Assembly (NCBI GenBank): GCA_000091205.1
Contig: AP006500.2
From: Cyanidioschyzon merolae
Lineage: Eukaryota
DNA length: 64,000 nucleotides
Reading direction: 5' to 3' (one strand)
Below are positions 7,345-57,756 of the stretch, in pieces (position 1 is the stretch's first letter; each line of letters begins with the position of its first letter). A model generated the notes under the pieces. The model made no database searches. It saw nothing but the letters and a program-made list of their open reading frames with translations, and had not been told where the DNA came from. The position numbers were made by a program, and so were the translations under genes.

Positions 7345-10300
7345 CCACAGATGCTCAAAGAAACGGTATCAGAAAACCCACTGGATGCGAATTTTCCATA
7401 CCCTTGATATGAGCCGTGGTGAAGCGACATGGATGGGCAAAGAGAAAAAAAGGTGCCTCCCCAGGAGACCGTCACGAGCTGGACATTTTCGATTCCGCAT
7501 TGATAGGCGAACGCTTATGACAGGAGCGACCGGTACTCGCCTCTCTCGGCAACAGCTCTTTCGTGAAAAACGGAGGATCTAACCGTAGATACGCAAAGCG
7601 GTGCGAAATGCCTCTCGTAAAGCCTCGACCGGTGAGCGTAGCGACGACAACATCAGCCCCAGCGGCGATTCAAGCATGTAGTCGCCTGAGTATCGGCAAA
7701 CAGGCAGACTCAAGCAACACGTCTGCCTCCCTTCTTCGAAGCACTCTGTGGCCTCTGCTTCTCGCGTTATTCTGTCCTGCGGGTAGGCCACGTTGCTTGC
7801 TGTGACGCAAAGGCGCTCCACGAGTGCGCAGCTGAGACGAGCGTTGAGCTGGTGTTCGCTTCAGCCTGGAAGTGCACGCTCAGTCCAGTTGGAAGCGTCT
7901 TCTCTGTCCTCCGTCGCCATGCTTTCCCTCAGGATGCGTTCCATAAAAACGCTCGGATGCGTGACGCTGTCCTTGGACAAGTCGTTTTCAGTCTTCGTCA
8001 GCGTTGAACGACTCTGGTGCTGAGCGGGTCGCCTGCGGGGAGGGATCGGTGAAGCGCGCCTCAGGCGTTTGGCACGCTCGCGGCTGAGAAGCTCGTGGAA
8101 AAGGCAGCTGCGGGATCGGAAACATATATACGCGGGGAGGCAAGTTGCTGGCTCGCCGTCCATCCACGGGGTCTGACTGCCGGTGTAAGAAAATGGAAGT
8201 GGAGTGCGACGTGCACATCCACGCTACCCGCCACGAAAGGAGAATGCGAAGCAACCACCTGACAGAAAAGAGAAGGATCCCAGCCGCAAAGAGGACGACG
8301 AGAGTCAGGAAGGAAACCCTGCGCACTGGAAAGGCCAGTCCGAAACCAGCGCCTACACGTCGGTGCCAGAACGCATCAACGGAAAAAATTCTCCGAGTAC
8401 GTGAGATGCCCAGGGCTATTAGGTATTGCGTAGAATGTGGTTGTCGGAAGGCTCGCCTAGCTCTCCCCGAATGGATGCCCCTCGTGCAGCAACTGGCGGC
8501 AAGGGTTTCGGAGGCAGCGCTGCCAGCAGTTCGCATTCGTAGGGAGTTTTTGGTCAAACCCTCGAGCGACAGCACTAGGAATGCTCCGCTCCGAGCATGC
8601 CAGCGGGCCTGTTCGTGGTGTCATTGACCAATACACACGCTGGCCGGCATCCGTTTCTGCGCTGCACTACATGGTTGCTCGGCCCATGGACAGCGTAGGT
8701 GCCAGGAAAAGTTTCGCCCAAACCTCAGAACCCATAGCCAAGAGCGGGTCCGTGGCGACTACCCTACGAGGCGCACCCCAGAGGCGTTGTACTCGTTGCG
8801 TCCACAGCGTTGTGGTCGACGAAATGTTGGCGACTGACGCAAGCGGCTCTTGGGATGTCCGTGGAGGCACGTGACGAGCTGGCTCCGGACGAGAAGGTGC
8901 TGGAAGCGAGCTCGGAGATGTCGCATCGAGAACGAGCGACGCTCCAGATCGTCCGAGCTCATGGAGTAGGTTTCTGTTCCGGAGCTGGGCACGTCGTCTC
9001 GGAAGGATTACGCGGGCGTTGACCTGGCCTAACTTGCATCCTGCGCTGCTAGGTTTTCGCGAACGCGGCGCTCCACCGCAAGGCAGACCCTCTGGTCGTA
9101 TGTGAGCGCCTTTGCATCCTCAAACCCCTGGTCGATACGGTCCCCGCATTTCGGGGCAAAGCCCATGATACCACCGTGCATATTTGTGTGGTGTACGACG
9201 TCCTCAGTGGTCTACGATGTGTGCGCACGAGCAGCTAGGGGGCACTCTACCTATTTCGGGCAGAGCGTTGGCGGGGCTCGTTCATCGCCACTCGTTGGCT
9301 GGGAAAACACGGAAAGCGATGTACAGGGGCCTTGGAGACGCGCACGGCACATCAAACAGCATGCACTTTGCGAAACCCCGGCCCGCTCGGAGCAACGAGA
9401 CTCATATTCAACCGCTTACGGAAAACGAACGTGAAGGCTTCGTGGTGCGCGTGGATGCCGTTTCTGAGGGCGCCGTGGCCGTCACCGTGCCCGTTCGTCA
9501 CGGGGCAGCGCCAGAGACCTGAACGGAAAGCAAATGAGTCTGCTCCACGCCTCCAGGGCCCGGTATCATCCGGAGTTGGACGTGAACGACGCCAGCAGGC
9601 GTACCAACTCGTGGAATGACGACGTAAAGACCTGTCGTGACGCGCTGAGTACGGTATCGGGCAAAAGGAGATGCACTGCGCACCTCATTCATAACGGGTA
9701 TGAGCGACTAGATCGCTCATGCGGACGAGCCATGGCAGAGGAACGCGGGACCGAGCTCGAGTCTCCAACAGTCGCAACCGCTCGCGGGCACGAGGCGGGT
9801 ATTCGCAAGCTTCCTCAAAGCACTGGAAACGGAACTGGCCGATCGGTTGCATCTTATAAAGATAGTGCATGGCGGTGGACGCGCTCTAGTTGCAGAACTG
9901 GACTGTCGTCGATAACGCACAAGGGATCCGCGAACCGGCACTGAAGTGCTCTCGGTGATGAGCTCTGGACGAGATTCTCACATCGCGAGCACAGAGACAC
10001 GCTGAAACTGCCGGTGAAGACGATTTGGAAACGGAGCCAGACGTATGAGATGACGTACGCTGAGTTCATTGAGCTCCAGGTGGCAATGCACTCACAGTTG
10101 AGACGCTTGCTGTGGAGTGTCTCCATCACGAACGGGAAACGCGTCCAGTTTCTGAACCGAGATTTGAGCGCCCATATCAGCATCTGGAACTGCATCGTTC
10201 TTCAGGAGCGTCCATCGGCTTTACTTCAGGCGAGGCTTCGATTCGATTGTCTAGTATGCAGTGTGGGTATTGTGCTGGAATGCTGCGGACTCTCGATGAA

Positions 10301-10432
10301 AAACATCATGTATCATCAGAGCGGCGATTAAGTCCCCGCTTGGAGCAAGCCACTTGTATGGTACGGTCTGCACTGTATCAAGGCCGGACTGCCATATACC
10401 TTCGCCACGAACAATGTTCGTGGGTAATTGTG
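7345..10432. repeat. Copy 1 of a 3.09 kb near-identical direct repeat; copy 2 is at 31227-34313
   Basis: The same ORF translations appear at 7385-10474 and 31226-34323. Similarity starts at CAGATGCTCAAAGAAACGG and stops after CGTGGGTAATTGT in both copies. Only a few SNPs or indels differ, for example near 9470 versus 33353. No recognisable coding content. Confidence 0.85.
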
Positions 10433-10775
10433 GAACACTCATCGTATTCCTTACTTGGGTATTACGGAGTATAGCGCTGTAGCAAACGAGGCTGGCGCTG
10501 CAGTGCGTGGCATTCAAACATGACTCTGCGCTGGCCTTGAATTTCGTCCGGGCGGCATTCCGGTACAGTCTCGAAAACTTTCTCTGTGCAGCAGCGTGCA
10601 GCTGTCTGCAACTTTAGTTTGAGTTACCGCGCTATTACGTTCATATTCTGTACAGCACTCTTTTGCAGCGGTAGAGCTAGTTCTCTGTACAGCTGCGTAC
10701 TTTTATATATATATGAATACGCTCTGCGGGGCGAAAATGTTTCGCGAACATGAGGTAAACTCATGTCCAGTCACC

Positions 10776-11310
10776 GACGCCTTCCGGCCTTTATTGGCCG
10801 GCCCCGTGCCATCGGTGTCAGCTTCTCGTTGTTAACTTCAAGTACAAGAGGCTGCCCCAAAAAGCTCGCCCGCGTTAGCTCCTCGGGTGTTGTCTTCAGC
10901 GCCGCATATCCTTTAATATTGATGGCGGCGTTAAAGTGACTTTTCAATTACTCCCTGCGTCTAATGCCTCTGGTGGAACTCACCAATGCAGGGATTCCTC
11001 AAAATTCGTGCCCTCTGCGCTGGTACGGTATCATCATCATCCCGTCCGTTAAACACCGTTTCTCGCATACCTACCGTGTTCTTTTCCGCCCCACGGTCTG
11101 CAAGGCGAGGTCTCCTTTCGATTTTTTCCGCCAGACAGCTATGACTCGCCTCCAGGATCCCTGACAGCCGTATCAATGACGCTCCCTTCGATTTTGTATT
11201 TTTGAAAATGAACGCATTTCATATGCATCTGTGCTATATATCGTGGTAAAGGATTTGATAACATTGAACTGAGTGCGGAACGCAATTTAAGTGAGAACTA
11301 TGAACTTATG
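10776..11310 (-). mobile_element. Fanzor/TnpB-remnant MITE-like element, copy D (non-autonomous, decayed)
   Basis: The minus strand encodes ...HFNAAINIKGYAALKTTPEELTRASFLGQPL followed by the conserved 3' block ...CCGATGGCACGGGGCCGGCC...GGCGTCGGTGACTGG. About 0.5 kb is homologous to copies C and E. The inner (5') boundary is approximate. Confidence 0.6.
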
Positions 11311-12527
11311 TAGCGTTAAATGTTACACAGGCACATGCTTGATGCAAAATTCGGGAGCGGCGCCCAATGATGTTTCTTGTACAGTTGCAGAAAGATTTAT
11401 TCAACTTTGTTTAGCTTAAGCTTTTCCCGAGATGTGAGCATCGCGCGTCTCCTGCACGGGGACCCTGAAGCGCTGCCTTGCACGTCTTCCGGCATAGAAT
11501 ACTTTCAGTGTTTGCTTGGCAGTCAGTTCTGAAACGGGGAGAGAGGCATCGCGACGAAGACGCCGCAGTGTAAGCTGCGAAGAACACTGACAAGTTTATG
11601 GTGCACGCTGTAGCACCAGCGCTTCGAGTTGTGCGCTTTTTGGAGAAGTCGTGCTACGGTCTCTTTCAGGCTCCTTGTTCCCGGGGTTGCAGCACGTTAC
11701 GACCACCTGGTGCTGGACGGGCTAGTAACGTGAGAGCACCTCGCGAGCTGCCGTTTGAGAAAGAAGAGCACGCAGTGGGTTTACCGCGCCTCGCTTCTCT
11801 GGGCACCGCAGCCGTTGTGGGTCCAGCGGCAGCTTTTGTCTCCGCTATGGTGATATCGTATGCCCTGACTTTTTGGCAACACTCCACTAACCTAAACAAG
11901 TCCAAATCAAGAGGCTAAGGACGCTCAGACAGGAGCATTCTGTGCACTTGGACTCTTCGGGACTCCCGGCAAGCCGCGGGTGACGAGCGCGCCCCGGCTA
12001 CAACGCAGCAACCGAAGTGGAACAGATGAAAGGCGTTTCTTGGAAAAAATTTCTGGCAAAGAACTCAAATTTTCGATACGCATAATCTCCCCGATGTTTC
12101 GGACTTAGGTACAGGGCTGGTCGTGAAGCACAGAGGTTTTGTCTTTCTATCGAACTTCGAAAAGTTGCTTATCCGGCGCGAAATCCGCATGCAATGCCTT
12201 CCGGGCCATTCTATCCAGCAGATAAGCGTCATAGAGGCGTTTCACGACGCTTTCGCTACTCTTACCTCATTTCAGAGCTTATCAACCTGAACGATTCCAT
12301 TTCAGAATGGAAATCAAGACCTTTCGTAGCCGATACCATCGAGCTGCGCAGAAAAGCGGTATATGTTGCGTGGTTCCCAACTGCGTATCCCTTTCAACTA
12401 AGTTTAATTTCACCTCCGCTACCGCGCTTACCACGAGATCAAAACCACTAGGCACAGTACCGTACAAATCGTAGACGAATTGCCTGTAGAATATATTTTT
12501 ACTGAACAGTGCAAGGAGAACTGCAAT

Positions 12528-13757
12528 TACCCTGCAGGTCAGTCACACCATATTACTCGCGTGGTGGTAGAGCACTTTAAGAAAGAGTTACATGCGCTCC
12601 GCATCAAAACCCGATATTCTCAAAGAGCACTTGCGTTTAATGGTAGAGAATGACCTGTTAATCACCTGACTGAAAGCAAAAGCGAGGATCGTGGTCGCCA
12701 CCTGCTTCTCTGTTTCTCAACCGGTAGTTCATGTAATGCTGAAAAACTGGCAAACAGTCGCAAAAAATCCCTGTTCACTCAAGGCCATCTTTTTACCGAC
12801 ATCGCAGTTAAAACAAAGTTCCTGGAACGTCATTATCGGCATGAAACAGAGGGGCGTCGGTTTGTTGTTTCAGTCGATGAGACTCCCTTCGGACAAGACG
12901 GTCGGGTCGTTGATGAGTATTCGAGGTGAAGGGAGCCCATTGTCTGTGCGATCGGACTCAAAGAGAACGACGATATTATCTGTTCTAGCTGTAGTGGATT
13001 CAAGTGGCGGCCTGGGTTTTGCTGGAACAGAAGGCCCTCACAACAGCACCAACAACTTTGTCGAATCATTGAAGACTTTTCCCAGACGTCCGGCGACTTC
13101 GTTCTGTTGGACAACGTGGTACTTCGCCATTCCCGTTGCGTTCGGGCTTTTGCCGAGGCTATCGGAGTAGAGATGCTTTTCATTCCTTCGTACGCTCCGC
13201 GGTTCAACCGCATCGAAGGAGAGTTTTCTATCAAAAAAAGCAATGCACGCACCACTATTCGAATCGATGATGCGTTCAGCACACGGTGACACGCCGGAGC
13301 CAATTTTATTTTGCTTGCGCAAATACTGCTCTTTTGGGGAAGGTCCCCACCTGAAGACATAACGAAGTGCGTTCATTTGAAGAAATAAAAAATCTTAGGA
13401 ATGAGCTGGGGTGTACACTTGAGAAGTTCGAGATAAAGAAACGCCAGCGGGCGCTTCGGCGAAAGAAAAATACGGAGAGCTTACAGAGCAGCATATGGCA
13501 CGAAAGGCGCAAGTTCGAATACTACTTGTACTCGGAACACGAGCGGCGGCAAGAAACGCATGGAGCTCGTGATCCGAGGCTTGAACGCTGCTATCAATAT
13601 CAGGAGATATTCTGTGTTGAAAACAAGGCCCGCAGGGATAACGCGTGCCAATTTTGTGGGATTGCCTCTCAGAGTCAAAATGCTCAAGGACGAGCTGATA
13701 CCGATAGCAGGGGGCCGGCGAAAAAGATATCGGAAGGTGTCACAACGTCGCTGGAAA
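12528..13757 (+). mobile_element. Tc1/mariner-like element with DDE_3 transposase remnant plus Fanzor/TnpB-like C-terminal remnant, copy A (decayed)
   Basis: The 5' end (12528-12700) is homologous to the reverse complement of 56235-56090 in copy B. It contains the DDE_3 signature VLLDNVVLRHS...FIPSYAPRFNRIEGEF and then the RuvC-III-like SGGKKRMELVIRGLNAAINIRRYSVLKTRPAGITRANFVGLPLRVKML. The 3' block CCGATAGCAGGGGGCCGGCGAAAAAGATATCGGAAGG is conserved. The 3' boundary is uncertain. Confidence 0.6.
12691..13289 (+). pseudogene. Tc1/IS630-family (DDE_3) transposase pseudogene, frameshifted
   Basis: ORFs 12691-13170 and 13107-13289 lie in different frames. The motifs DN..H and P.YAPRFNRIEGEF match the Tc1/IS630 DDE_3 C-terminus (D...P.YSPDLNPIE). 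Confidence 0.65.
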
Positions 13758-15283: not shown

Positions 15284-16333
15284 CGTCTCGGAAACCTCTG
15301 AAGAGCAGTCCGTGATGCTGCCCGCATCAGAGGTCTATTCGAAGACAGCGGTCCCGGTAAGTGGACGCCAACACTTTTTTCGGATGCAGTTATATCCGCC
15401 AGCGCGGCTCATATAGCCGCGTACACGCGAGCACGTGGCATTTATCAATCGCAGAAAGCCGACTGGCTGCGATCGAAATTCAACTCCGTGACTGCTCTCT
15501 TGGGAGCAGTCTTTCCACTGCTTTTTTGCGCTCTTTGTATTGTCCAGGCGAGATTCACTGCAGCTCATGCGATGAACGTATGAATGGCGGCCCGCCTGGC
15601 ACCAACGCCTGCAAGCAAGAGCAACGATAGGCCGCATCCACCGTAGAACAGGCAGTACGCGCATCCTAGTAAGACCACTGCGGCTTCGAGCTACCGCAGC
15701 AGAAACTCTGTATCCGCACTAGTTACTGGACCTGGTTGAGACTTTCTCACGCAATGGTCGCCTGCATGCTGTACATTGGTCTTCCTTGTCACTGTTGCTC
15801 TCTCCTATGCACAGCAAGTGCGGGTTGGCCAGGACTTGATATGAGTCTTACTGCGGTGCTGCTGTTTCTCTCGCCGAAACGGCTCGTCTGCGTTTTTTTC
15901 TGAAAGAGCATGAGCTTTCTCATACGAAACCGTTCAGGAAACTTCACTTGAATTTTCCTGCTTTGTGAACTTATCCTCTCGGTAACAGAGGTGTTTCCTG
16001 AACAGAGCGTATCTGTAAAGCGGTGTTGCGCTATAGGACCCGGCAGGTAACCCCGGCAGCTATTGTGGAGAGTCTGTGCTGCGGGGCATAACGTCCAAGC
16101 CTGGTCGCACATCGTAACTCGTTGCGTAGATAGGTCAAAAACCTGTTTTCCTGTGTCGCTGTGAGCCTCACCTGTGCACGTTCCTGCGCAGCGGGGAATG
16201 GTATATGGGACGGCAGTGCGAGGCAGGGCAAACGAATGCGGCATTTTTCGCAGGCAACGGGGAGCCCAACCTGGCCAGACTCTACAGTCGTCAATGCTGG
16301 ACGAAACCTGGATTCTCCAAGGCTTGTACGCCG

Positions 16334-17746
16334 GTGCCAAGGTTAAAAAGGAACACTGACCTTATCGGACTGCTGCTACCTATCGATTCCTTAACCTACC
16401 TTGAATGGATGCTTGGCCTCGAAAGTCGAATTGCAGTAATACGGGCATACAGATTCATATACAGTTCTGAGAAGTTCGGTGGTCTGTTCGACTTGACTCC
16501 TTCGACGCTTTGCCGCTAGAATGCGTTACGGATCCGAAATAAAGATGGTACGCGACGCCCTCGAACAGGGTTCGTTATTCGACCTGCATCGTTGTCCAAT
16601 TCACATGTTCAACCTCAACTGTGCTGCTTTCCTTATACGCAGCAGGCTGAAAGCACGCATCCTTCAAGTTTCCGATCATTCTATTTCAAGGCGACTCGAG
16701 GGCGCAGCAGTTCGCGCCGCTGGACTGGCGAAGAATGCTGCTTGACGTCGCCCCTGAGGAAATGCTCAGAAGCTCATAGCGAAAAGTCACTGAAATTCTC
16801 ACGATAAATAATCGATTGCGTTCGAGAGTCGAATCCTCCCCTCTTTGTGGTCATCGACGAAGCAGCATTCGACGGCAGCGCAATAGATCTCACGGGAGAT
16901 GCTTTCATATGTCACCGTCTCTTCTGTTTGCATGGAAAGGGTCTTGGACTTTGAGTTGAGGCATCGCAGCGATTGCTTCCAGTAGAGCCTGCGTCACCGC
17001 TTTGCGGTAAGGGACCGTAAAAGGATCGAAATTTCTCGACTTTTACCCTAGCGAGGTGTCTCCTCCCCGCACTAGTGCCGTCGTGGGCAGCATCGCGCGA
17101 CGCAAACCCTCCGTCCAATGAACAGCGAGCGCTGGTGTTTGCATCGGGCAGAGTACTCGCGGACATGGTCGCCCAGAAGAACCCCGTGATTTAAGGGTAC
17201 AGCACCGGGCGCGGAAACCGCGGAGCGCATCCTGGGGCGCCTTCTGTACCCTTCAAGCGCATGAACCGAGCGCATGAACCGAGCGCATGAACCGAGCGCA
17301 TGAACCGAGCGCATGAACCGAGCGCATGAACCGAGCGCTGAAGCGAGCCCTCACGCGCTGCAGGGTGAGCCTCGTTGGCGAAGGAGGCGTACTCCTTATA
17401 TGCGACCATCTAAGCGCATCCATGCGTCACGCCTGTGCAGAGGGCAGCGAGACTGTGTCCAAAGAAGATGACAAGAGCAATTGAAACGCAGATCGCAACC
17501 TCAGCCTGTGCATGAAATGCGTCTAAACAGGCCGCAAGTAACGTGGCTCGGACTGTACTGCTGCCAGCAATACTCCCCCATTGGTGACAATAGAACTTCA
17601 GGGATAGGTGAGACCAGCGTATTCAAAGGCGAGCTTGAGAGCAACGAAAGAGAAGCAGTCGCTGAACGGTCAGTGAAAAGCTGGTTTTCATGGCAATTAC
17701 GAGGGACTCAAACTCTAGGGTGTGCTTGTGAGTTCCCTGAGTGCAT
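16334..17746. repeat. Left arm of inverted repeat IR1 (about 1.41 kb); right arm 19344-20761
   Basis: Mirrored ORFs: 16521-16745(+) equals 20346-20570(-), 16912-17166(-) equals 19925-20179(+), and 17481-17849(+) matches 19143-19610(-) up to ...EFPECI. Boundaries were read directly: CCAAGGTTAAAAAGG at the outer edge and GAGTGCATC at the inner edge. Confidence 0.85.
17262..17339. repeat. 13-bp tandem repeat (GCGCATGAACCGA x6) inside the IR1 arm; mirrored at 19747-19824
   Basis: Direct reading: cgcatgaaccgagcg repeated six times. The inverted copy ctcggttcatgcg also occurs six times. Confidence 0.9.
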
Positions 17747-17989
17747 CAGTCTTATTTTTATGTGGCACATGTACAAGGCACGCTTCGTCGGAGCAGGCAA
17801 TGGAAGCTCGCCTCACGACCGACGGTGGATTCTGCAACGAGCTGCATAACGCGCTGCGGTCTGTTCGTAGCAGCATTTATGTTGCTAGTGGTGCTTTCTC
17901 GAGCTGAGGACGAAAGCTGCTTCCTTAGAAGGACACGGGGTGGCGATCGAAGTCCACGCTGAAGTCAGCGACTTCCTTCTGGCATTTCT

Positions 17990-18670
17990 ATGCGAAGAAA
18001 CACGCTGAGTGGCTTTCTCCCTCTGCTTAGGGTAAGGGCACGAAAAGCGACTGTTTCGCAACAACCCTCCTCGATGAGCGTTTTCGCACAGTACTCGTCT
18101 CAGCAGCACCAGCAGTGCTCCTCTATAGAGCGGGTGAGTTGTCGCCGTTTCCGCTTAGAGTCTCCACCTGATACTTGGAGGCTAGGCGCTGCGCTGGCTC
18201 GCCTTGCACGGCCTGGCGATGTGTTTCTGCTTCAGGGCAGCCTCGGAGCCGGAAAGACGACATTGGCTCGGGGCTTTATTCAAGAGTTTCTGAACGATCC
18301 CGAACTTGAAGTTGTCTCACCTACGTATCTTCTGGACGTGACCTATCCGGACTACGAGAACAAGGCCAAAGTTCCTGGTGTAGTTCTTCATCATCTGGAC
18401 TTGTATAGGCTGGAGAACGCTGACGATCGCCCAATTGCGGACTTTGCCGATATATTCACCCATCAAATATGCTTGGTCGAATGGCCAGAGCGCCTGGGAA
18501 AGTATTCAACACCAGAAGAATTCTTGCAGATCCGCTTCTCCTTCGTAGCGGGCGCGGATGGGCCTCGCGTTATTGAATCATCTGGTTTTGCGAGTCACAA
18601 GCACCTGGAGAATCCACGCTGGTCACAGGCACGCATCGATCAAATACAATGGCAATGTTCAGCAGCTTAG
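17990..18670 (+). CDS. tsaE: tRNA threonylcarbamoyladenosine (t6A) biosynthesis protein TsaE/YjeE-like P-loop ATPase with an N-terminal organellar presequence
   Basis: GDVFLLQGSLGAGKTTLARGFIQ (P-loop), SPTYLLDVTY and HHLDLYRLEN match bacterial TsaE family motifs. The first roughly 60 aa are S/R-rich. The gene lies in the spacer between the IR1 arms. Confidence 0.7.
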   Translation: MRRNTLSGFLPLLRVRARKATVSQQPSSMSVFAQYSSQQHQQCSSIERVSCRRFRLESPPDTWRLGAALARLARPGDVFLLQGSLGAGKTTLARGFIQEFLNDPELEVVSPTYLLDVTYPDYENKAKVPGVVLHHLDLYRLENADDRPIADFADIFTHQICLVEWPERLGKYSTPEEFLQIRFSFVAGADGPRVIESSGFASHKHLENPRWSQARIDQIQWQCSAA

Positions 18671-19343
18671 ATATGCCGAGAGCCTCCGAAGCTTTCGAGG
18701 AGACCACCATTGCGTAGACCCTGACGCACACCTCGGGTGTGATTGGACCGGCTCTCTGTGCGTCTTCAACGCTTTTCTCGTTGCCGCAGAGACGAGCACA
18801 TATGTGGCATGGCTGTTTCATGCTGCCTCGATCTCTTATATACTGGAGTGCGAGCAGGCCCTATCATCAAGTCGACACCGTGTGCGTCGTTCTAGCGCTG
18901 CCGCTTGATGGAGTTCTCCGTAGAAAGCAGCCATGTGAACTTTCGTGGCAATGCACATATCCGTTCCGCAAGCGTGCTACTTGTTCAAACTGCTACATAT
19001 GGGAATTTTCAGTCTTTGCCGACGCATAAATCTTCGAAAGATGGACGCACATGTTAAGGAGAACGAAAGATCTTTCAAGATCCACGAAACCGCGAAATAT
19101 GAACGCGGCATTAGCAGCGTCGGAAGCAGTCTAGCCCAACGACTACCCAACGACTCTTCTGTGGTATATCTTCGAATGACTTCTGTCCATTGTCGCGTGA
19201 TAAGAGTTGATGGTATGGCAGTATCCGTAGATAATAATCACAGCGCAATGTCGTGTGTTCGACATGAGTTGCGGAGGCACCCCGCAACGTTTGTTCGTTG
19301 TCTTCGTCTCATGCTTACTCTCGTGAGAGAATAAAGTAAAGCA

Positions 19344-20761
19344 GATGCACTCAGGGAACTCACAAGCACACCCTAGAGTTTGAGTCCCTCGTAATTGCCA
19401 TGAAAACCAGCTTTTCACTGACCGTTCAGCGACTGCTTCTCTTTCGTTGCTCTCAAGCTCGCCTTTGAATACGCTGGTCTCACCTATCCCTGAAGTTCTA
19501 TTGTCACCAATGGGGGAGTATTGCTGGCAGCAGTACAGTCCGAGCCACGTTACTTGCGGCCTGTTTAGACGCATTTCATGCACAGGCTGAGGTTGCGATC
19601 TGCGTTTCAATTGCTCTTGTCATCTTCTTTGGACACAGTCTCGCTGCCCTCTGCACAGGCGTGACGCATGGATGCGCTTAGATGGTCGCATATAAGGAGT
19701 ACGCCTCCTTCGCCAACGAGGCTCACCCTGCAGCGCGTGAGGGCTCGCTTCAGCGCTCGGTTCATGCGCTCGGTTCATGCGCTCGGTTCATGCGCTCGGT
19801 TCATGCGCTCGGTTCATGCGCTCGGTTCATGCGCTTGAAGGGTACAGAAGGCGCCCCAGGATGCGCTCCGCGGTTTCCGCGCCCGGTGCTGTACCCTTAA
19901 ATCACGGGGTTCTTCTGGGCGACCATGTCCGCGAGTACTCTGCCCGATGCAAACACCAGCGCTCGCTGTTCATTGGACGGAGGGTTTGCGTCGCGCGATG
20001 CTGCCCACGACGGCACTAGTGCGGGGAGGAGACACCTCGCTAGGGTAAAAGTCGAGAAATTTCGATCCTTTTACGGTCCCTTACCGCAAAGCGGTGACGC
20101 AGGCTCTACTGGAAGCAATCGCTGCGATGCCTCAACTCAAAGTCCAAGACCCTTTCCATGCAAACAGAAGAGACGGTGACATATGAAAGCATCTCCCGTG
20201 AGATCTATTGCGCTGCCGTCGAATGCTGCTTCGTCGATGACCACAAAGAGGGGAGGATTCGACTCTCGAACGCAATCGATTATTTATCGTGAGAATTTCA
20301 GTGACTTTTCGCTATGAGCTTCTGAGCATTTCCTCAGGGGCGACGTCAAGCAGCATTCTTCGCCAGTCCAGCGGCGCGAACTGCTGCGCCCTCGAGTCGC
20401 CTTGAAATAGAATGATCGGAAACTTGAAGGATGCGTGCTTTCAGCCTGCTGCGTATAAGGAAAGCAGCACAGTTGAGGTTGAACATGTGAATTGGACAAC
20501 GATGCAGGTCGAATAACGAACCCTGTTCGAGGGCGTCGCGTACCATCTTTATTTCGGATCCGTAACGCATTCTAGCGGCAAAGCGTCGAAGGAGTCAAGT
20601 CGAACAGACCACCGAACTTCTCAGAACTGTATATGAATCTGTATGCCCGTATTACTGCAATTCGACTTTCGAGGCCAAGCATCCATTCAAGGTAGGTTAA
20701 GGAATCGATAGGTAGCAGCAGTCCGATAAGGTCAGTGTTCCTTTTTAACCTTGGCGACAAA
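19344..20761. repeat. Right arm of inverted repeat IR1
   Basis: See the left-arm entry. The arms are near-identical, including the same six-unit tandem-repeat count. Confidence 0.85.
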
Positions 20762-21009
20762 GTCGCGAAATGTGTTATCTAAACGAGAAGCGTTTTATTA
20801 TCAATATCGTCTTCGCGTACTTGTGGGTACATGAAGAACCGTCCAAATGCATCGGTGACGCAGTTGAAGAGGATATCTTTGGGCAATCAGTACTGGTCAG
20901 CGCTCGCAGCTAAAACGTTTTCCTCAATCCGATGTCTGAACGAGTTTGACTTGTACGACGCCTGGTACTGGGCGTGTTTCGTACAGAGTACTGAGCACTC
21001 TGTGATTAT

Positions 21010-22881
21010 GTGTGCTTGGGGACACGCATTTTGTTTGGAGAAACTCCTTTGCCGTGGGCGCGTGAGCTTTTTGGGACTCTGAGAACCACAGCGGACTGGA
21101 GACGTCTAGTGAACCAAAGCTCAAAAAAGCCAATCGCTCAGGTTCTTCCTACGAGGAACGGCACCAAACCGTCTGCGAGCATGGTAGACCGTAGGATAGC
21201 TAATTCAGGCCAGGTGAGGGGCCTCTCTTCTTCACTTGAGAGCACTGGTTGGAAAGCGCTTTCGAAGAGAAAACTTTGTTTGGTTATTTTCATTCTGCTT
21301 CCCCTGCTTAACATAGTACAGACACGAATTTACTCTCGGGAGCAAGCGCACCACGTACCCGCGGCAAAGTCGCCGAGACATCACGACCTGTTGTCGCTAA
21401 GAGAAATACTGCATCTTCTTGAAAAACATGAAAAAGAAATCCATGAGAAACATAGAGCATCACGCGACACGGTAACCGTCGTTCTGAACGTGTTCCTTCG
21501 ACCGGGAGCATTCCGTCGCGTCCTCGATGGAATCGGAAGTCAGACTGCTCTGCAAAGCATCACTCATGTAAACGTTCTTGCCTTGGGGTCCCCATTCGTC
21601 CATCAGTATGGGAAGCTTCTTGAAGAGTACCGCAAGACTGCGAGTTGGACATCGGAGGTTTCTATTTCCCTCGTGACATCGGAGCCGACTTTCAACCCCG
21701 GTTATTTTGGACGTTTTCTGCTGTCGATGAATCTGAATACAACTTTCACGCTCATTTTAGATGATGACGTTGTGCTGGGAGCGCGATACCTGGAGCTGTG
21801 TCTGCGTTGGGCCCGCTCTATCGACAAACATGCTGTGCTTGGCCAGCGCGGGGCGCGATATTACAGAAACGAACTTCGAAAGCGCTCATTGTTTGGCCTT
21901 GGCAAGCGCCTTTCTCCGAATAAATATCATGATTTTTTCGGGGAACACGGCCTACTGCGGGACACTGATGTGCTCTTCTCCGCTTGGTTCTTGCGGACGA
22001 AGTGGATTCTCAAGATGTTCGCGGAGGAGCCCCTCACCTGGGCCACCGCCGAGGATATCCATTTAGGTATGTTGCTTCGTCAGCGCTTCGGCATAAGAAT
22101 GGTCGCCTTACCGGTAGATCCCCAGTTGCCAGAATTTCGACTCAATCATGACCAATCCCTGGAAATAACGAACCGTTCTTGGTCGGACGAGAATACAGCA
22201 CTGGTTCGCCTTCGTGATGCAGCGGTGGATATGTGGCTTTCGAGAGAGCTTCATGGTCAACTTTTGAATCCACTGCTATACTCCTGGACCAGAAAAGATG
22301 TTTTTTGGTACAGCATGCCTGTGAAACGAGGTGCAGGAGCGCTATCTGCCTACTCGTCATCCCAACGGAAGAATCGCAGCGGACGCCTACATGTTCTGTG
22401 GCGTCCCTTTGCCTGCAAACGGCTTCGTTTCGCTCCGAACGATTCTGTCCCAATGATATCGCTGCCATACTGTCGCCGCTTACGCTACCGACGACCTCGT
22501 ATCGGCATTGCAAAGTCATACTTCGGGCTCTGGAATAGCGGTTATTTAGCGGACTGCATGTTCTGGGGTGATCGAAATGGGGCTTCATACCATGAGTTTC
22601 TGGGCTATACCCTCGATATTCGAGGCCAAGATGAATGGATCCTAGACGGGATTTTGTATGGAAATACCTACGGCCGCGTTCGGCTCTGGGATGTCCGCCG
22701 GAACGCACTGATCATCGATGAATATCTCGAACAGAACGTAACCCTGCGACTGAAGCGCGTTACAGTTGTGCCACCGACGACCATTATAGCCCTCTTTTCA
22801 GAACGTCTGGATGACGGTGTACGAGCAGCACAGCGGAAATTGTTTGATGAAATTCGAATCTTACCGAAGGATGGCACGTAA
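21010..22881 (+). CDS. Putative Golgi-type glycosyltransferase with type II signal anchor and DxD motif; family uncertain
   Basis: There is an N-terminal hydrophobic anchor, LCLVIFILLPLL. The DxD-like segment is TFTLILDDDVVLGARY, with a downstream acidic motif TAEDIHLG. It is a single 623-aa ORF. Confidence 0.5.
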   Translation: MCLGTRILFGETPLPWARELFGTLRTTADWRRLVNQSSKKPIAQVLPTRNGTKPSASMVDRRIANSGQVRGLSSSLESTGWKALSKRKLCLVIFILLPLLNIVQTRIYSREQAHHVPAAKSPRHHDLLSLREILHLLEKHEKEIHEKHRASRDTVTVVLNVFLRPGAFRRVLDGIGSQTALQSITHVNVLALGSPFVHQYGKLLEEYRKTASWTSEVSISLVTSEPTFNPGYFGRFLLSMNLNTTFTLILDDDVVLGARYLELCLRWARSIDKHAVLGQRGARYYRNELRKRSLFGLGKRLSPNKYHDFFGEHGLLRDTDVLFSAWFLRTKWILKMFAEEPLTWATAEDIHLGMLLRQRFGIRMVALPVDPQLPEFRLNHDQSLEITNRSWSDENTALVRLRDAAVDMWLSRELHGQLLNPLLYSWTRKDVFWYSMPVKRGAGALSAYSSSQRKNRSGRLHVLWRPFACKRLRFAPNDSVPMISLPYCRRLRYRRPRIGIAKSYFGLWNSGYLADCMFWGDRNGASYHEFLGYTLDIRGQDEWILDGILYGNTYGRVRLWDVRRNALIIDEYLEQNVTLRLKRVTVVPPTTIIALFSERLDDGVRAAQRKLFDEIRILPKDGT

Positions 22882-25800
22882 CAGGACTTAGGAGAGCACT
22901 GTCCGAGAATGCTGATCAATTTTTGAATGGGCTCCAACTATGCAAAGGGATCATCATTGATCATTTTCATGCGAATTGCACATCTGAGCCTCGTGCAGAC
23001 CATAAACTCTCAAGCCGTTTCTGCGCCCATGCTAGAATGGCATGGAACGGGTCCTCTAAATAGGGTGGATACAATAACATTTGGATCGCTTCCCATTGTC
23101 GAGAGCATCAGCACGTGCTGGCTTTTGCAACCAATATTTCCTTTTCATCTCTCTTATATCTGGCTTCAAGTGCGCAAGTCTCTCCTTTCCTGTTGCTCGA
23201 TTGACAGCGATCGAAGGACTCTGATGGAACTCTTACATTCCGGATTTCTCCGCGTCTGGCTGCTTTTCACACATATCGCACTATGGCGGAACCTGCGATC
23301 TACGCCTCACCTGCCAGCATCATTTTCTTCGTATACGGCCTCGGTGCCCCGTCGCAGCCGCGATACTCGGCCCTGTAATCAGGAATTTCCATATGTCCTC
23401 CATTTCTCTTTATCCGGGAGCCGGCCAGTGGTGCATCAAGACCTGCTTCATGACACGCTATTTGCCTTTGACGGGTACACGAGGCTCCATTCGGTGATCT
23501 GCTCTGTTTTCCCGCCCGATGGCGCATCCTATGATGAAGGACTTATTGTGAGCGATCCCCTCGGCAACTGTTCTCTCCGCTGCAAATGCCACCGCATTCT
23601 CTTCACTCGATAGCTTTGCATCTTTTCCCATGCGCGCTCGTCGTTGAATAATTACTCTTCTCACAAAAGTGCAGACGTGCGTGGCTGGATGCGAAGTTTT
23701 GTAGCCACTCGTAACCATCTTGTGCCCACATATTCCATCTGCGTGCGTTCATACGGCAAAGGGTTCCCAAACTCCCTTCTGTTTCGCCCGCTCGCTCATC
23801 GCGCAATGCCCACATTCGTTCCCTACCAGTGAAACAAATATTGTGGGTACCCGAATAGAGCGTACGGATATGGTTAGAAGTCAGAGACTTCGAAATTTAT
23901 GGCCCCAGATCCTCTTCAGTTATGACGGGGAGGCTTCAGGGTCAGACCCTCTTTCGAGTCTCACGGAGGCGCAGAAATTATTATCCGCGCTCCCTCTGTC
24001 CAGGCCGATACGGATTATATCGGGGAACAAGTTCGCGAATCCATGTATTTGAATGCCCTTTGTTTCTCCGCGTTTTTGCCTTCTGAACAGTGTGTCTTTG
24101 AGGTCCGAGGGGGCCTTTAAGAGTGGGGGACATTCTGAATTGATGAGAATGCATAAATCGATGCCAAGGGACACGGAAAAGGACAATAAGTTTCCAAGCA
24201 GTCGTGCGACCACCCCGCTCCTCCGATTTTTCTTTCCCTTCGCATCTTTCTCTGCAATCCGTCGCTTTTCCTATTTCCAGGTGTTCTTGAGGGTCTCCGC
24301 AGCTCTGAGAGATAAGAATGTAGTTTGCTTGATGAACTTCATATCGTCCATCACGACCTTTGATTTTTTGACGCTCGTGTTCTGTATCGTCCCCTTCCGC
24401 TCCGCTCTCGCACGGGCGGTGCCTCCATAACGAGACGCAAATAGGGCTCCTCGAGGACTGGAAACTAGGAAGACAGAGATGCTTTTATATAAGGTGAAAA
24501 TTTCTTCCTCGTATCCTCTCAAACAGCACTAGAGACGCATAAGCGCCATCGCATTCTTGTGCAGGCTACTTCCGAGCTGTAAATCCATTTGCTTCTCGGC
24601 ACCTGGGCCTTGGGGAATACCGGACAGCGATTGATCATGCTCTCTATTCTCCGAGCCGATGAGTCTGGACGAAGCGCTGGTTATAAAGAGCTCCTTCTTA
24701 CTGTCCAGAGTCGTGACCAAGTCGTCAACCATATGTCTTTACGTTATCGCATGCTTGAGGTACTGGTAGAGATGGGCTCTGGCATGGTGCCGGATCATCG
24801 TGCATATCGACTCCCAAGTGCTTTACGAGTTATCCTGGCCGCTTTGAGTTACCAAGATACGAAGAGTTTCAAATGCTATGAATGCATTCAGCTGGGAAAC
24901 TGAAGTGCATTCAGCGTCGATGAACTCACGCAGCCGAGGAGATGGATCTTGTATGCACTCGTGGAGAATGGCAACTAAAAAGGCTGTCTGAGTCCATAGC
25001 GCCTCCCTGAAGTCGCCAAATTTTAGAAGGTCCTCAGCACTCTCGAGTTACACAGTCTTGATTGTGATTTAAGAGTACTGCGGGAGCTAGCTACAAATGA
25101 GAGAGGTTTTCCCGTATGCGAGCTATGCGTTTAGGCAGGAGAAAGTACGTTCTTAACATTCCCTTCAGACCGACGTGGATTAGAGCAGCAATGAGCGCAG
25201 CCGCTTGTGCGAGAGAACAGGCGGACCATAGGCTTCGTACATGAAGGTGCCCTGTCTGAGAGGGGTATATTTCTGGAGAACCGGTACGCACATCTTTTCA
25301 AAGCGCTCGAGGCTTGAATAATTGCTCTTCCAGAGCTTTCCCCGGCAGAACATATGTCCCTGTGCTGGGTGCTTCTTTTGATGAACACGCTTGAGATATA
25401 CGTTCCTCATGCCTTGTTCATCTTTTTCTGATACCGCCTTGGAAAGTCGCCATCCGCAAATGGGAAAGATTTAAGGAAAACAAGTGCCGAAGAACTTAGC
25501 GTGTTCAGTCGCGGAGCCCATAGCACCGAGCACCAGTTCGTGTCGAGAACAATCCGATTTTCTGAAGCTTGTATTTGTTTTCCTGAATCTTTTCTTCGCG
25601 GCCTTGAAGACGTCTTCAATCGGGTCGGGCCCTCTAGACTATGTGGCAGTGCATGAAATATCCAATCCTCTGTTCTCTGCTGTTTTCCAAACAGAGTAGG
25701 ATTTCAGAACGCGATGTTGTTCAGAGTGAAACGAGTATCGGAGGGAAAATCTAGGTTGCTGACAATGTCGACCAAGTTTGCTCCTTCCAGGCTCACTTTG

Positions 25801-26547
25801 TGCAAAGCGGAGACGTAGAATTCCATGGAAATGATTGCAGCAGTGATTGGAGTTCGAACCCAGCATCCGTTTCCATGCAAGCAGAACAGACGGGATCCTG
25901 TAACTGCACATCTCGTAAGAGTAACTGGGCCACATTTGAATGGCGTTTCACTGATGGTAATGAAGAGAGGTGGATTCGACGTGCAAAATGAATCAATCAT
26001 GTGAAGAGGTAATTTGATTGAATTTTCTGCATGAGCTTGTGAGCAAAACGTGAATGAACGACATCGAGTTTTTTACTCGTCTATCCATCAGAGCGAATCT
26101 TGTGCCCACGTGTAGCCCAGAAACAGAACTTTCGAGTTCTTGAACACTCCGGAATTCGAGCATCCTGGTCATAAGGGAAATAGAAGAGTGAAGGGATGCA
26201 CGTATGAACTGTTTCATGATTTCGTATATTTTACAGACCCTTGTTTTACGACATCGCGGTTCTGCTTAATTTCGGTCATTCAACGAATTGCACCGGTAAA
26301 AAGTGGAAGGAACCACTCCGGAAAGAAAATCGAGAACTCTTAAACTACGTATGAATCCGTAAAATTTTAGTCATGATATTCGAATGTCGACAATGTTCAC
26401 CTGAAACATTTTCGGAGAAAAACAAAAGGTATGAGCAGACCGAGCTGTTCAGTGTTCTGTTCTAACCTGACACTGGTGTATATGTATGTTCAGTAAAACA
26501 ATAAACTTTCAAGGACCCTAGAGTGTCTATACACACCCAATCACATA

Positions 26548-27095
26548 CGCCTCCCAGCATGTTTTGGCCGGTCTCCTGCTATCGGCCTCAGTTTCTCTTT
26601 TTACACGTCGACCCTGAGAGGCTGTCCCACAAAGTTTGCCTGCGTCAGCTCTTCGCGTCTCGTCTTCAGCGCCACACATCGTCTGACATTGACGGCGGCG
26701 TCTTATTCTCGGCTTAGAAAATCCTTGGGTTTATGGCGATTGGTTGAGGTCACTACTGCAAGGAATCGCAGAACAAGCGCCCTCTGTGCCACTGTACTCT
26801 CGTTATCGTCTCTTCGGGCGAAAAACTTTTCTCGCCTGCCTCCTCTTTTCCTCATCCTCTTCGTCACTTGCTCGTCTTCACTCGATGGTCAGGGACGGGA
26901 GGATCTTGAAGCTTCTCCGACATCAGGCAATGACGGCCCTGCAAAATCCCTGACTTCCATATCCATACCTCTAACTTGGATTTTGTACTTTTTAAAAATG
27001 ACGTACTTCGAGCTCATTTGCTATAAACCGCGAAAAGGCATTTAATTACACGCACATGAGGTCGATCACACTTGAGGTGAAAGAATATTCGGACC
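26548..27095 (-). mobile_element. Fanzor/TnpB-remnant MITE-like element, copy E (non-autonomous, decayed)
   Basis: The minus strand encodes ...*DAAVNVRRCVALKTRREELTQANFVGQPLRVDV*. The 3' block is ...CCGATAGCAGGAGACCGGCCAAAACATGCTGGGAGGCGTATGTGATTGG. The region 26920-27080 is homologous to 59995-60170 and to 11130-11300. Confidence 0.6.
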
Positions 27096-27521
27096 CGCCA
27101 CAAAGCGGATCGATTTTGTGATGAGCGCACTGGCAACACCGCAAGTGACTTTCCGTCGACGACCATGGAGCATCTCCGACCGCCAGTGGATCGAAATCAC
27201 TCCGTCCAACAGGAACAACGTGGAATCTTGCTGCTCATTTTCAAGATACAGTTTGTCTTTGAGCTCAATCCGGCGAGGAGGAGGAGGATACTTCCAGCCT
27301 TCTCACTCTCAATGGCCGAGAATCCGATCCCAACGATGGTGCCAAGCCTTTTTCCTATTCCTTCGAGGTCCTCTTCTAAACGAGTGCCGTACCGGAAACC
27401 TCGTCTCCCGTGTGAGGTTCGGTCGAGATCCGAATTGCAAAAAATCCTTGAAACAGTGGGCCGTTGCCTCTGGGTACCGCTCTCCCTACAAAATTCAGCT
27501 ATTCTGAATGGCAGGCAACAT

Positions 27522-34200: not shown

Positions 34201-34313
34201 GAGCGGCGATTAAGTCCCCGCTTGGAGCAAGCCACTTGTATGGTACGGTCTGCACTGTATCAAGGCTGGACTGCCATATACCTTCGCCACGAACAATGTT
34301 CGTGGGTAATTGT
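31227..34313. repeat. Copy 2 of the 3.09 kb near-identical direct repeat
   Basis: See copy 1. It starts about 300 bp upstream of the RRM gene start and ends about 290 bp before the DUF1517 gene. Confidence 0.85.
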
Positions 34314-56235: not shown

Positions 56236-57289
56236 TCCTGCTACCACTGCCCAGTAAAGAATATGTATCCTACATGCAATCCGTCAAAGATCTATACAGT
56301 ACATCACGTGGTGATGTCGATCTCCTGCAATAGACTGTGACATAGCATTCGATCACACTCAGCGGGGGCCGAACGAAACTGAGTTGAAAGACCATAATGG
56401 GCATCAAAGTCTGCTTAGGTGGAACAAAAACCTTTACGATTTCGTTCAGGAAAACGCAAACGTATTTATAAGGAATCGGTCACCTTGCCCCTCGCGAAGA
56501 CGCACAGAGGGATTGCAGACACAAATCAACGCATTTCTAGGCATAGTGTCTCCGCAGAGCATAGACGCTTCTCGAGGTCAGCTGCGGCACAGCAGCAGCC
56601 GCGCACCCGTGAGCGGAGTCTTCAGGAGCGGGACTAGACAGCGAACCGCACGGCGGAACAGGAAGCAGATTCGTATGCTCAGTTAGTGCCTGCGAGGCAC
56701 AACTGCGTTCGTTTCCAGCTTCGGTCGCCCTCGCAACTCTTTATCTCTGAAACAATCTGTATGTCTCGATATATGCACACCAATGTGTTCGTTTTAATTC
56801 GCCTTTCGATGCTCCTGGCCTTGCGCTCTCGGTTGTACGCTGGCGGCGCGTAAAGCTTCGCATATGTTGCGTATAGATGCCACTGCCGCAGCTCAGGAGC
56901 GGTGCTTGTCGCCCCGGTGCTGATGCAAGAAAACTATCTTCCGTTCCATCTCGACGAGTGGCAACCAAGTTTTCCAGACATTCCCAGTTCTTGGCTGCTT
57001 GGTTCGGATACGTTTTTGGGGATAACTCACACATGTTCTTGTACGTGCCGGCGGTGCCTCTGCGCTCAGAATGGTGGATATTCACCGCCTCCATCTCCTA
57101 CAGGCTTGGATTTCTGTGGGATCTACTTTAACCGCAAGTTTGAGCGCTAGCTCGTCTCGCTGCGAGCCCGCCGCAATCTCATCAGTTCGCGTAGATTCGC
57201 TGTCGCAGCGAGACGTTTATCCGGTTTCGCTTGCAACGGGCTTGCAGTGGTCCCGAAGAGAAGGGTCTTTGCGTTTGCGGTAAGATCGC

Positions 57290-57673: not shown

Positions 57674-57756
57674 CTCAGACCGCTGGGAGTCTGCATACTG
57701 CTTGACCCGCAGACCGGTGCCGTCGACAAGCGTTCAAGTTTTCTTAGGGTACCTCT

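Follow-up and report, generated by a model that had tools for sequence, protein, structure and literature searches.

Foldback and Pack-MULE-type elements are gene-capturing transposons, and the arms of human Y-chromosome palindromes and of plastid inverted repeats are kept identical by intrachromosomal gene conversion. A repeat already described from the genome studied here is CMe-1A (TE-N2_CMe), a Fanzor1-bearing element of Cyanidioschyzon merolae with a long form of ~3 kb that carries a Fanzor/TnpB-like gene, shorter derivatives that share a common 5' part, and copies ~80% identical to the consensus (Bao & Jurka 2013, PMC3627910). The same paper reported no terminal inverted repeats (TIRs) and left the class of the element open, and it did not describe inverted pairs or their homogenisation (PMC3627910).

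We analysed a 64 kb stretch of chromosome 18 of C. merolae 10D (the window), in which two inverted arms enclose a TsaE gene. We consider it roughly 70% probable that two decayed transposon copies inserted around a resident TsaE and were then homogenised by gene conversion, a structure of an ordinary and known kind.

Inverted arms around the TsaE gene

A repeat search and blastn identified inverted arms at 16336-17758 and 19333-20755 (1423 nt, 99.7% identity). In a base-by-base alignment the four mismatches all fall within the innermost 11 nt, and the remaining block of 1412 bp (16336-17747 against 19344-20755) has zero mismatches; a perfect inverted repeat of 1.4 kb is far beyond chance. The block lies within 1-6 nt of the arms described in an earlier note on this DNA, which had also reported equal counts of a 13-bp repeat in the two arms and a TsaE-like gene as the only recognisable content of a 1.6 kb spacer. 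Each of these observations was reproduced: Tandem Repeats Finder gave 7.2 copies of the 13-bp unit in either arm, that is, six full identical units and partial ones, the TsaE gene has a Pfam match and starts 243 bp past the left block, and the other ORFs of the spacer have no family match. The features of the structure are as follows.

16336-17747, + strand: left arm, perfect block, without mismatch to the reverse complement of 19344-20755
19344-20755, - strand: right arm, perfect block, partner of the left block, without mismatch
16322-17777, + strand: left transposon copy c1 (family A), approximate full extent; family alignment and profile reach past the block
19314-20762, - strand: right transposon copy c2, approximate full extent; profile alignment as far as 19314
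17256-17348, + strand: 13-bp tandem array of the left arm, unit AGCGCATGAACCG, 7.2 copies (Tandem Repeats Finder)
19743-19835, - strand: mirror copy of the array in the right arm (Tandem Repeats Finder)
17778-19313, no strand: unique spacer between c1 and c2, with no second copy in the window (nhmmer)
17990-18670, + strand: TsaE, bacterial-type t6A ATPase subunit, 226 aa (Pfam PF02367, E=1e-27)

The elements appear to reach past the identity block, with c1 overhanging it by ~14 nt on the outer side and ~30 nt on the inner side, mainly because c1 and c2 still match in register at 16 of the 30 positions beyond its inner edge (P=0.003) and because of where the profile alignments end. The following 30 nt match at 8/30 positions, which is the chance level, and at the outer end the alignment contains a 6-7 nt indel in c2 versus c1. 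The block therefore ends inside a homologous region whose edges have diverged, and the alignment gives c1 and c2 differing outer flanks and differing inner termini. In the family alignment, the 13-bp array is private to this pair and absent from the other copies.

A dispersed family with transposase and Fanzor remnants

For the arm sequence, of which the earlier note had suggested seeking further copies, nhmmer counted nine complete or fragmentary occurrences in the 64 kb window, to which the census of this repeat, family A, is confined. Homology among the copies covers the whole ~1.4 kb and begins at the outer arm boundary, and each arm aligns end to end with the solo copies c5 and c6. The principal further members are:

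57755-59147, + strand: left arm c3 of a second inverted pair, 1393 bp, one indel versus 61014-62405
61014-62405, - strand: right arm c4 of the second pair (blastn and nhmmer)
5461-6848, + strand: solo full-length copy c5 (nhmmer and profile alignment)
46003-47411, - strand: solo full-length copy c6 (nhmmer and profile alignment)
23010-26496, - strand: long version of the element, ~3.4 kb, with a 5' part at 25692-26496, an internal part of 2.06 kb and a 3' part at 23010-23618

Independent copies are ~55-65% identical (c3 versus c1, ~60%), and blastn within the window found no near-identical copy of c1/c2 beyond that pair. Only two closely spaced inverted pairs are present in the window, and both are 99.9-100% identical. 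The spacer of the second pair (1866 bp) is without a recognisable gene, Pfam searches on its ORFs gave nothing informative, and it is unrelated to the TsaE spacer (nhmmer). The identical block of the second pair covers the whole element, and recent local transposition and conversion are indistinguishable there. Closely spaced direct pairs may be missing since recombination would delete them, whereas inverted pairs would only convert or flip.

The 1.4 kb family corresponds to the long element minus its internal part. That internal part is homologous to 53068-54185, which adjoins fragment c8 (52448-53058), and it continues the transposase ('SRGPDPIEDVFKAAKK'). Both arms carry two coding remnants:

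~16400-17110, + strand: IS630/Tc1-mariner-type transposase pseudogene, helix-turn-helix and first two thirds of the DDE domain, with stops and frameshifts; mirror at ~19981-20691 (-)
17123-17436, + strand: C-terminal pseudogene of Fanzor/TnpB-like type (RuvC-II region), broken up by the 13-bp array; mirror at 19655-19968 (-)

The family consensus frame matched NCBIfam transpos_IS630 NF033545 (E=6.8e-11; residues 25-215 against profile positions 20-214 of 299) and, below the gathering threshold, Pfam DDE_3 PF13358 (E=6e-5); the arm's own frames gave no significant transposase match. The third catalytic region ('DPIED') is found only in the long form, and the transposase, with its N-terminal helix-turn-helix and DDE_3 domain, is present as a pseudogene only. 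When the TnpB/Fanzor-like proteins P0121 and P0123 were compared with the window by tblastn, they matched 17123-17272 (56-58% identity, E about 1e-10) and 17302-17436 (E=0.004). A stitched consensus matched P0121-P0124 with E-values from 3e-35 (P0121) to 2.5e-14 and PF07282 with E=0.004; its motifs are PVIIGYGTG, CxxC and RNRDxNAAINIL, of which PVIIGYGTGRG…GEPxVPVK and RNRDxNAAINIL are invariant. The TnpB-type RuvC-II, zinc ribbon and RuvC-III segments are present as a C-terminal pseudogene only, and a phmmer search of P0121 against PDB sequences returned no match.

A motif of ~30-35 nt (…GTGCCAGGTTAAAAyGGAAC…) lies at the 5' ends of the copies and, reverse-complemented, at their 3' ends, as putative terminal inverted repeats of weak conservation. 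In a shuffle test, the inner-end similarity was marginal for c1 (z=2.4) and absent for c2 (z=0.3). TA precedes 8/10 ends under one placement, the exact termini not being fixable. A protein-coding gene in the arms was also considered and set aside in favour of pseudogenes, there being no long ORF, no Pfam match and no codon periodicity among the copies, and searches of the whole window for RNA genes found none (Rfam at gathering threshold, ARAGORN). The window holds a second IS630-like family (12457-13726) that is tied to family A through profile matches only; BLASTP of its sequence directly against the family A transposase consensus gave no significant similarity.

Collectively, these homologies identify family A as a putative decayed, internally deleted IS630/Tc1-mariner-type element with a Fanzor/TnpB C-terminal pseudogene. 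It shares with the IS630/Tc1/mariner group and its internally deleted derivatives the helix-turn-helix and DDE_3-type homology and a size of ~1.3-1.5 kb; short terminal inverted similarity, and a TA that often stands next to the inferred ends, may be further points in common. In contrast to that group, all family A copies in the window are pseudogenes, and their 3' third derives from a Fanzor and not from the end of the transposase. Compared by published description, family A probably matches the CMe-1A/TE-N2_CMe repeats: both are old families of the same genome, ~80% identity to a consensus fits the ~60% pairwise identity observed here, and the window contains a ~3.4 kb long form together with 1.4 kb deletion derivatives that retain the Fanzor C-terminal remnant. 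The 5' half with IS630/Tc1-type transposase homology and the weak terminal inverted similarity differ from the CMe-1A description. No family A sequence was found in ~90 kb of Cyanidiococcus, Cyanidium and related loci, a sample too small to date the family.

Conserved gene order and concerted evolution of the arms

The TsaE ORF matches a C. merolae 10D protein at 100% identity and has an N-terminal extension of ~55 aa. Its cassette is bordered by an ABC ATPase gene and a gene for a conserved 623-aa protein. The order ABC ATPase, TsaE, ~580-aa gene, 448-aa gene (-), RRM gene is kept in Cyanidiococcus (L001) and in the metagenome relatives L003-L006, and in Cyanidium (L002), too, the next gene comes after TsaE. 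The intergenic regions beside TsaE measure 1185-1341 bp and 732-934 bp in the relatives and 2706 and 2339 bp in 10D, the relatives' values plus ~1423 bp each; no inverted repeat was found at the Cyanidiococcus locus. Since the gene order is ancestral and each intergenic region is longer by about one arm, the arms are best read as insertions around a TsaE resident at its ancestral, syntenic place, rather than as parts of a unit that captured it. A regulatory role of the arms for TsaE is not indicated.

Three environmental contigs (L013, L014 and L015) come from near-identical strains, with TsaE 99-100% identical and the same arms present; as short-read metagenome contigs they may merge the arms into one or combine several strains, and one of them, L014, is chimeric. 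Their spacers are 99.1-99.7% identical to that of 10D. Unique DNA differs between the strains by 0.33-0.87%, and the arms of these short-read contigs diverge from those of 10D by 0.82-0.97% (11-13 of ~1340 sites). The two 10D arms differ from each other at 0/1412 positions. At the ~19 sites where environmental arms are unlike 10D, both 10D arms agree at every one; site 17632, for instance, is G in every environmental arm, the left-arm fragment included, and A in both 10D arms. The environmental strains have 2 or 5 fewer units in the 13-bp array, whose count is equal between the two 10D arms. Had the arms evolved independently, zero difference would have a Poisson probability of 9e-3 to 3e-6. 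Paralogous 10D arms are thus more alike than orthologous arms between genomes, with the environmental side represented by short-read contigs.

Because the strains differ in arm sequence and repeat number and the 10D arms stay identical, the pair shows concerted evolution by gene conversion. The left-arm fragment of L015 differs from the right arm at 5 sites, all in the innermost 134 bp of the block, an edge gradient of the sort that conversion tracts should leave. Proficiency in homologous recombination is a trait of C. merolae, in which a genomic allele is reported to have undergone gene conversion (PMC3764038). The earlier note had proposed a palindromic duplication kept homogeneous by gene conversion; the conversion half of that idea holds, given the concerted evolution and the diverged element edges, but the arms look like two transposon insertions and not like a duplication of local DNA. 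The likeness to Y-chromosome palindromes and plastid inverted repeats lies in arms that are more alike within a genome than between orthologues, an abrupt end of identity and a unique spacer. Unlike those systems, the arms are far smaller (1.4 kb), consist of two transposon copies rather than a duplicated local gene, and show no sign of functional arm genes for conversion to protect.

Origin of the structure and its implications

The geometry of long inverted arms around one gene fits one transposon of composite, foldback or Pack type, with terminal inverted repeats of 1.4 kb, that captured TsaE and travels as a whole. Such an element would place host-derived coding sequence between long inverted arms that contain a short tandem array, as seen here, and a second locus has the same geometry. 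We nevertheless consider this origin, which the earlier note had put forward, very improbable: the comparison with orthologous loci turned out against it, TsaE keeping the gene order of three related Cyanidiales and the two arms alone accounting for the extra DNA. Each arm is a complete member of a dispersed family, a remnant of an autonomous-type element with both its own ends, and copies without an enclosed gene exist in the window (c5 and c6), which is the outcome that the earlier note had named as speaking against a capture. The two pairs enclose unrelated spacers, the window contains no second TsaE copy, the tandem array is a private microsatellite and not the building block of the arm, and no target-site duplication can be seen beyond the arms, where exact element ends are not fixed. 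An assembly artefact, also raised by the earlier note, is similarly improbable. Perfect long inverted repeats are a classic mis-assembly product, and a repeat could have been collapsed or mis-joined in the 10D reference; against this, the junctions between arms and spacer recur in three independent metagenome assemblies, whose contigs include the spacer, the right arm and a stub from the inner end of the left arm (none of L013-L015 covers the left arm's outer junction). The differing flanks and inner termini of the arms, intergenic lengths that fit two real insertions, and the existence of a second inverted pair all point the same way.

Zero differences in 1412 bp and a common microsatellite count would also be expected if one old copy had recently been copied in inverted orientation across TsaE, either by a local hop (trans-mobilised transposition) or by repair of a break templated on the first copy, so that the arms are identical because they are young. 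The block of the TsaE pair is about one element long, and the identical block of the second pair covers a whole element, like a fresh transposition. This origin is unlikely, however, since both arms were already present in strains 0.3-0.9% from 10D in unique DNA and the 10D arms lack the differences expected since that split. The last ~30 nt before the inner element end also fall outside the block, and there the copies are alignable and ~47% different, while the outer end has an indel; the copies are full of stops with two poorly matched ends, and the window holds no other near-identical copy. Quite unlikely, in our view, is an invertible cassette in which arm crossovers flip the TsaE spacer and both orientations occur in populations, maybe with regulatory consequences. 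Recombination between the arms clearly occurs, and crossovers accompany a fraction of such events in other systems. In L014 the right flank, reverse-complemented, is joined to one arm and to the spacer in + orientation, leaving the spacer inverted relative to the right flank, but this short-read contig is chimeric and ends in 1177 bp of unrelated DNA at 38% G+C, on which Pfam gave nothing informative, and where perfect inverted repeats of 1.4 kb stand on both sides, the direction of a spacer is beyond what short reads can establish. The 10D orientation, which is also the ancestral one, is found in L013 and L015; no recombinase gene lies in or beside the cassette; and TsaE keeps 243+ bp of its own upstream sequence inside the spacer, so a flip need not alter expression. 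It is doubtful that the cassette flips naturally via its homogenised arms with both orientations coexisting in wild Cyanidioschyzon, as L014 hints.

We therefore favour two insertions followed by gene conversion. The 4.4 kb structure would then be two decayed non-autonomous copies of a ~1.4 kb DNA-transposon family and not a single mobile element. The copies would have entered the two intergenic regions flanking TsaE in opposite orientation in the Cyanidioschyzon lineage, probably in one transposition burst or by a local hop. Later homologous recombination between the inverted copies would have led to repeated non-crossover gene conversion of one arm by the other, leaving the 10D interiors identical, including the private expansion of the 13-bp microsatellite. 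The outermost ~10-30 nt of the elements would have lain outside the conversion tracts and drifted apart.

Were the flip real, inverted pairs of transposon origin would repeatedly give rise to small structural polymorphisms in an algal genome that is recombination-proficient and otherwise very compact, and the locus would offer a simple natural system in which to measure mitotic inverted-repeat recombination in a red alga. The significance of the structure beyond C. merolae is small. Within the species it matters for repeat annotation and, in practice, for transgene targeting to intergenic regions, where repeats can misdirect recombination. Collectively, these data indicate that the intergenic regions of the supposedly repeat-poor C. 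merolae genome hold dense, old remnants of transposase-plus-Fanzor transposons, and that the efficient homologous recombination of this alga keeps closely spaced inverted copies identical.

The inverted repeat and the ancestral position of TsaE

A repeat search and blastn recovered the inverted arms at 16336-17758 and 19333-20755, and base-by-base alignment assigned all four of their mismatches to the innermost 11 nt, leaving a perfect block of 1412 bp with no differences. The inverted repeat that the earlier note had described around TsaE is therefore real, and its report of an equal 13-bp array in both arms was borne out by TRF, which assigned 7.2 copies of AGCGCATGAACCG to the left and right arm alike. 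The 1.6 kb spacer held, as that note had also stated, a single recognisable gene, a 226-aa ORF matching Pfam TsaE (E=1e-27). The product of this ORF shows 100% identity with a protein of Cyanidioschyzon merolae 10D, the strain called 10D below.

Features of the window
16336-17747 and 19344-20755: family A (a ~1.4 kb dispersed repeat), left and right arm, inverted pair flanking TsaE
17256-17348 and 19743-19835: 13-bp microsatellite, within the Fanzor remnant of each arm
17990-18670: TsaE gene
57755-59147 and 61014-62405: family A, second inverted pair, 1393 bp, one indel, spacer 1866 bp
about 5461-6848 and 46003-47411: family A, solo full-length copies
family A, half-copies: three
23010-26496, minus strand: long form of family A (~3.4 kb), with 5' half 25692-26496, 3' half 23010-23618 and 2.06 kb between
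12457-13726 (plus) and 55033-56302 (minus): second IS630/Tc1-type family, ~1270 bp, 72% identity between the two copies
10731-11296, 26489-27089, 54967-55262 and 59596-60156: shorter 3' fragments of this second family
7346-10431 and 31229-34313: direct repeat of 3086 bp, 99.5% identical, 24 kb apart, G+C about 59%

Around TsaE, the window shows the same gene order and orientation as the Cyanidiococcus yangmingshanensis locus (L001) and the contigs of a related alga (L003-L006), which run ABC ATPase, TsaE, a ~580-aa gene, a ~448-aa gene on the opposite strand and an RRM protein; in Cyanidium caldarium, TsaE still adjoins a ~520-aa gene. The relatives have intergenic regions of 1185-1341 and 732-934 bp on the two sides of TsaE; in the window these reach 2706 and 2339 bp, an excess on each side of roughly one arm, and no inverted repeat was found at the TsaE locus of L001. 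Together, the shared synteny, the one-arm excesses and the L001 locus indicate that the arms are lineage-specific insertions on either side of a gene that itself never moved. The earlier note had offered, as one of several possibilities, that a transposon captured TsaE, a reading contradicted by the synteny across L001, L003-L006 and C. caldarium and by the arm-sized excesses; the comparison of orthologous loci that it recommended instead finds TsaE ancestrally in place.

TsaE is a bacterial-type gene in a eukaryotic nuclear genome, conserved across Cyanidiales at 57-58% identity, and its product carries an N-terminal extension of ~55 residues and is presumably organelle-targeted. The gene retains, inside the spacer, 243 bp of upstream sequence that belong to it, and nothing suggests that the arms play a part in its expression. 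The genes of the window are ordinary eukaryotic and intron-less, and no tRNA or Rfam matches were found across it.

Repeat family A and its transposase and Fanzor-like remnants

Using an arm as the nhmmer query, we detected nine copies or fragments of family A, two of them solo and full-length, so the further arm copies that the earlier note wished to see sought do exist, as judged within the 64 kb window. Homology among the copies spans the entire 1.4 kb, beginning at the outer arm boundary. Independent copies share only about 55-65% identity, and their substitutions display no codon periodicity; family A consists of old sequences in neutral decay. The second inverted pair has the same outward-to-inward geometry as the TsaE pair and its identical block is the whole element; its spacer contains no recognisable gene and holds a fragment of another repeat (59596-60156). 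Family A alone accounts for about one sixth of the window, which sits poorly with the customary description of this genome as poor in repeats. Intergenic DNA in this part of chromosome 18 is several kb longer than in Cyanidiococcus (22881-27522 versus L001 13358-13946), and the added DNA is transposon debris.

Readable frames were regained from a majority consensus of the family A copies. The 5' 800 nt of this consensus code for a helix-turn-helix together with the first two thirds of a DDE domain, matching the NCBIfam IS630 transposase (E=6.8e-11) and, below threshold, Pfam DDE_3 (E=6e-5). The next ~450 nt specify the C-terminal portion of a TnpB/Fanzor-like nuclease, matching four metagenomic proteins with E down to 3e-35 and retaining the invariant PVIIGYGTGRG…GEPxVPVK, paired CxxC motifs and RNRDxNAAINIL. 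The arms themselves, and not the consensus alone, match those proteins (tblastn; 17123-17272 at 56-58% identity, E about 1e-10). At the element ends lies an inverted motif of weak conservation, often with an adjacent TA; both the TIRs and a target-site duplication are tentative here. The nearest intact relatives of the Fanzor-like remnant lie on metagenome contigs (L007 5569-7224; L008-L012, a 610-aa gene), where they neighbour an RNA ligase, an Rpb2-type RNA polymerase subunit and many small ORFs; these contigs look like giant-virus genomes, and the likeness of their Fanzor-like gene to the algal repeat extends to the nucleotide level (nhmmer E=6e-15).

The internal 2.06 kb of the long form is homologous to 53068-54185, DNA adjoining another 3' half, and carries the transposase reading frame onward; the 1.4 kb family A thus derives by internal deletion from a ~3.4 kb element that combines transposase and Fanzor. 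The long form (23010-26496 and 52448-54185, both minus strand) supplies the remainder of the transposase and a larger stretch of the Fanzor-like gene, and the short family A and two separate half-copies share a break position at about 790. As compared by published description, these elements probably correspond to known repeats of C. merolae: CMe-1A is a Fanzor1-bearing element of about 3 kb with about 150 old copies, and TE-N2_CMe is its short relative (PMC3627910).

In the second IS630/Tc1-type family, the translated frame exceeded the threshold for Pfam DDE_3 (E=5.7e-10) and closes with a Fanzor-like 'RGLNAAINI' tail. No long ORF occurs in the 3086-bp direct repeat, and Pfam gave no match for the one ORF submitted to it; the repeat may have arisen by recent segmental duplication or be a young element.

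Identity of the arms within 10D and between strains

Near-identity of the arms could reflect youth or, as the earlier note had suggested, homogenisation by gene conversion. In the window it is restricted to the two closely spaced inverted pairs, with all other comparisons at about 60%. Past the perfect block at the inner end, the next 30 nt remain in register (16/30, P=0.003) and the 30 nt beyond fall to chance level (8/30), and the outer ends of the two arms differ by a 6-7 nt indel. Because a freshly transposed copy is expected to be identical to its very ends, a block that stops within the element argues for conversion rather than youth.

A metagenome scan for TsaE yielded three environmental contigs (L013, L014 and L015) with a 99-100% identical gene, all with arms. 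These are short-read contigs that may collapse arms or mix strains, and all three lack the outer junction of the left arm. Relative to the 10D arm, theirs carry 11-13 changes in about 1340 sites (0.82-0.97%); the unique spacer and flank differ by 0.33-0.87%, and the 10D arms agree with each other at every site where the environmental arms differ. Site 17632, for example, is G in every environmental arm, including one left-arm fragment, and A in both 10D arms. The 13-bp array, equal between the 10D arms at about 7 units, has 2 or 5 units fewer in the environmental contigs (about 5 in L015, about 2 in L013 and L014). Independent evolution of the 10D arms after the strains split would predict 5-13 differences, and none was observed (Poisson P 9e-3 to 3e-6). 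Five sites separate the left-arm fragment of L015 from its right arm, and all lie in the innermost 134 bp of the block, a gradient at the edge such as conversion tracts should leave. C. merolae has efficient homologous recombination, and published work describes a genomic allele undergoing conversion (PMC3764038). Collectively, the pair-limited identity, the diverged edges and the strain comparison favour gene conversion over youth and indicate that the arm interiors evolve in concert.

Spacer orientation and origin of the structure

L014, from metagenome Ga0080006, reads from the reverse complement of the right flank through an arm into the spacer in plus orientation, with a left-arm-type inner terminus, such that spacer and right flank are inverted with respect to each other; this arrangement would be the product expected of a crossover between the arms. 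The contig then passes abruptly into 1177 bp of unrelated DNA (9165-10341, 38% G+C), for which reason L014 is most likely a chimeric metagenome assembly. This foreign tail carries an uninterrupted 315-aa ORF with no family match, and the sequence changes over at a short CCCAACGACTA repeat (window 19135-19155). With perfect 1.4 kb repeats on both sides, the orientation of a spacer is beyond the reach of short reads; the reference orientation, which is the ancestral one, is seen in L013 and L015. An inversion polymorphism of the TsaE spacer may exist.

These comparisons of sequence show that a resident TsaE is flanked by two complete copies of a Fanzor-tailed element of IS630/Tc1 type that is now dead. 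Both copies may derive from one burst or local hop, which would have supplied the similarity needed for recombination to start, and breaks in one arm would then have been repaired repeatedly from the other without crossover, keeping the arms identical. Deletion would eliminate direct pairs that lie close together and inverted pairs could only convert or flip, which would explain why the near pairs in the window are both inverted. The TsaE-flanking structure is an ordinary outcome of transposon remnants in a recombination-proficient genome, and the pair is a further instance of a known phenomenon.
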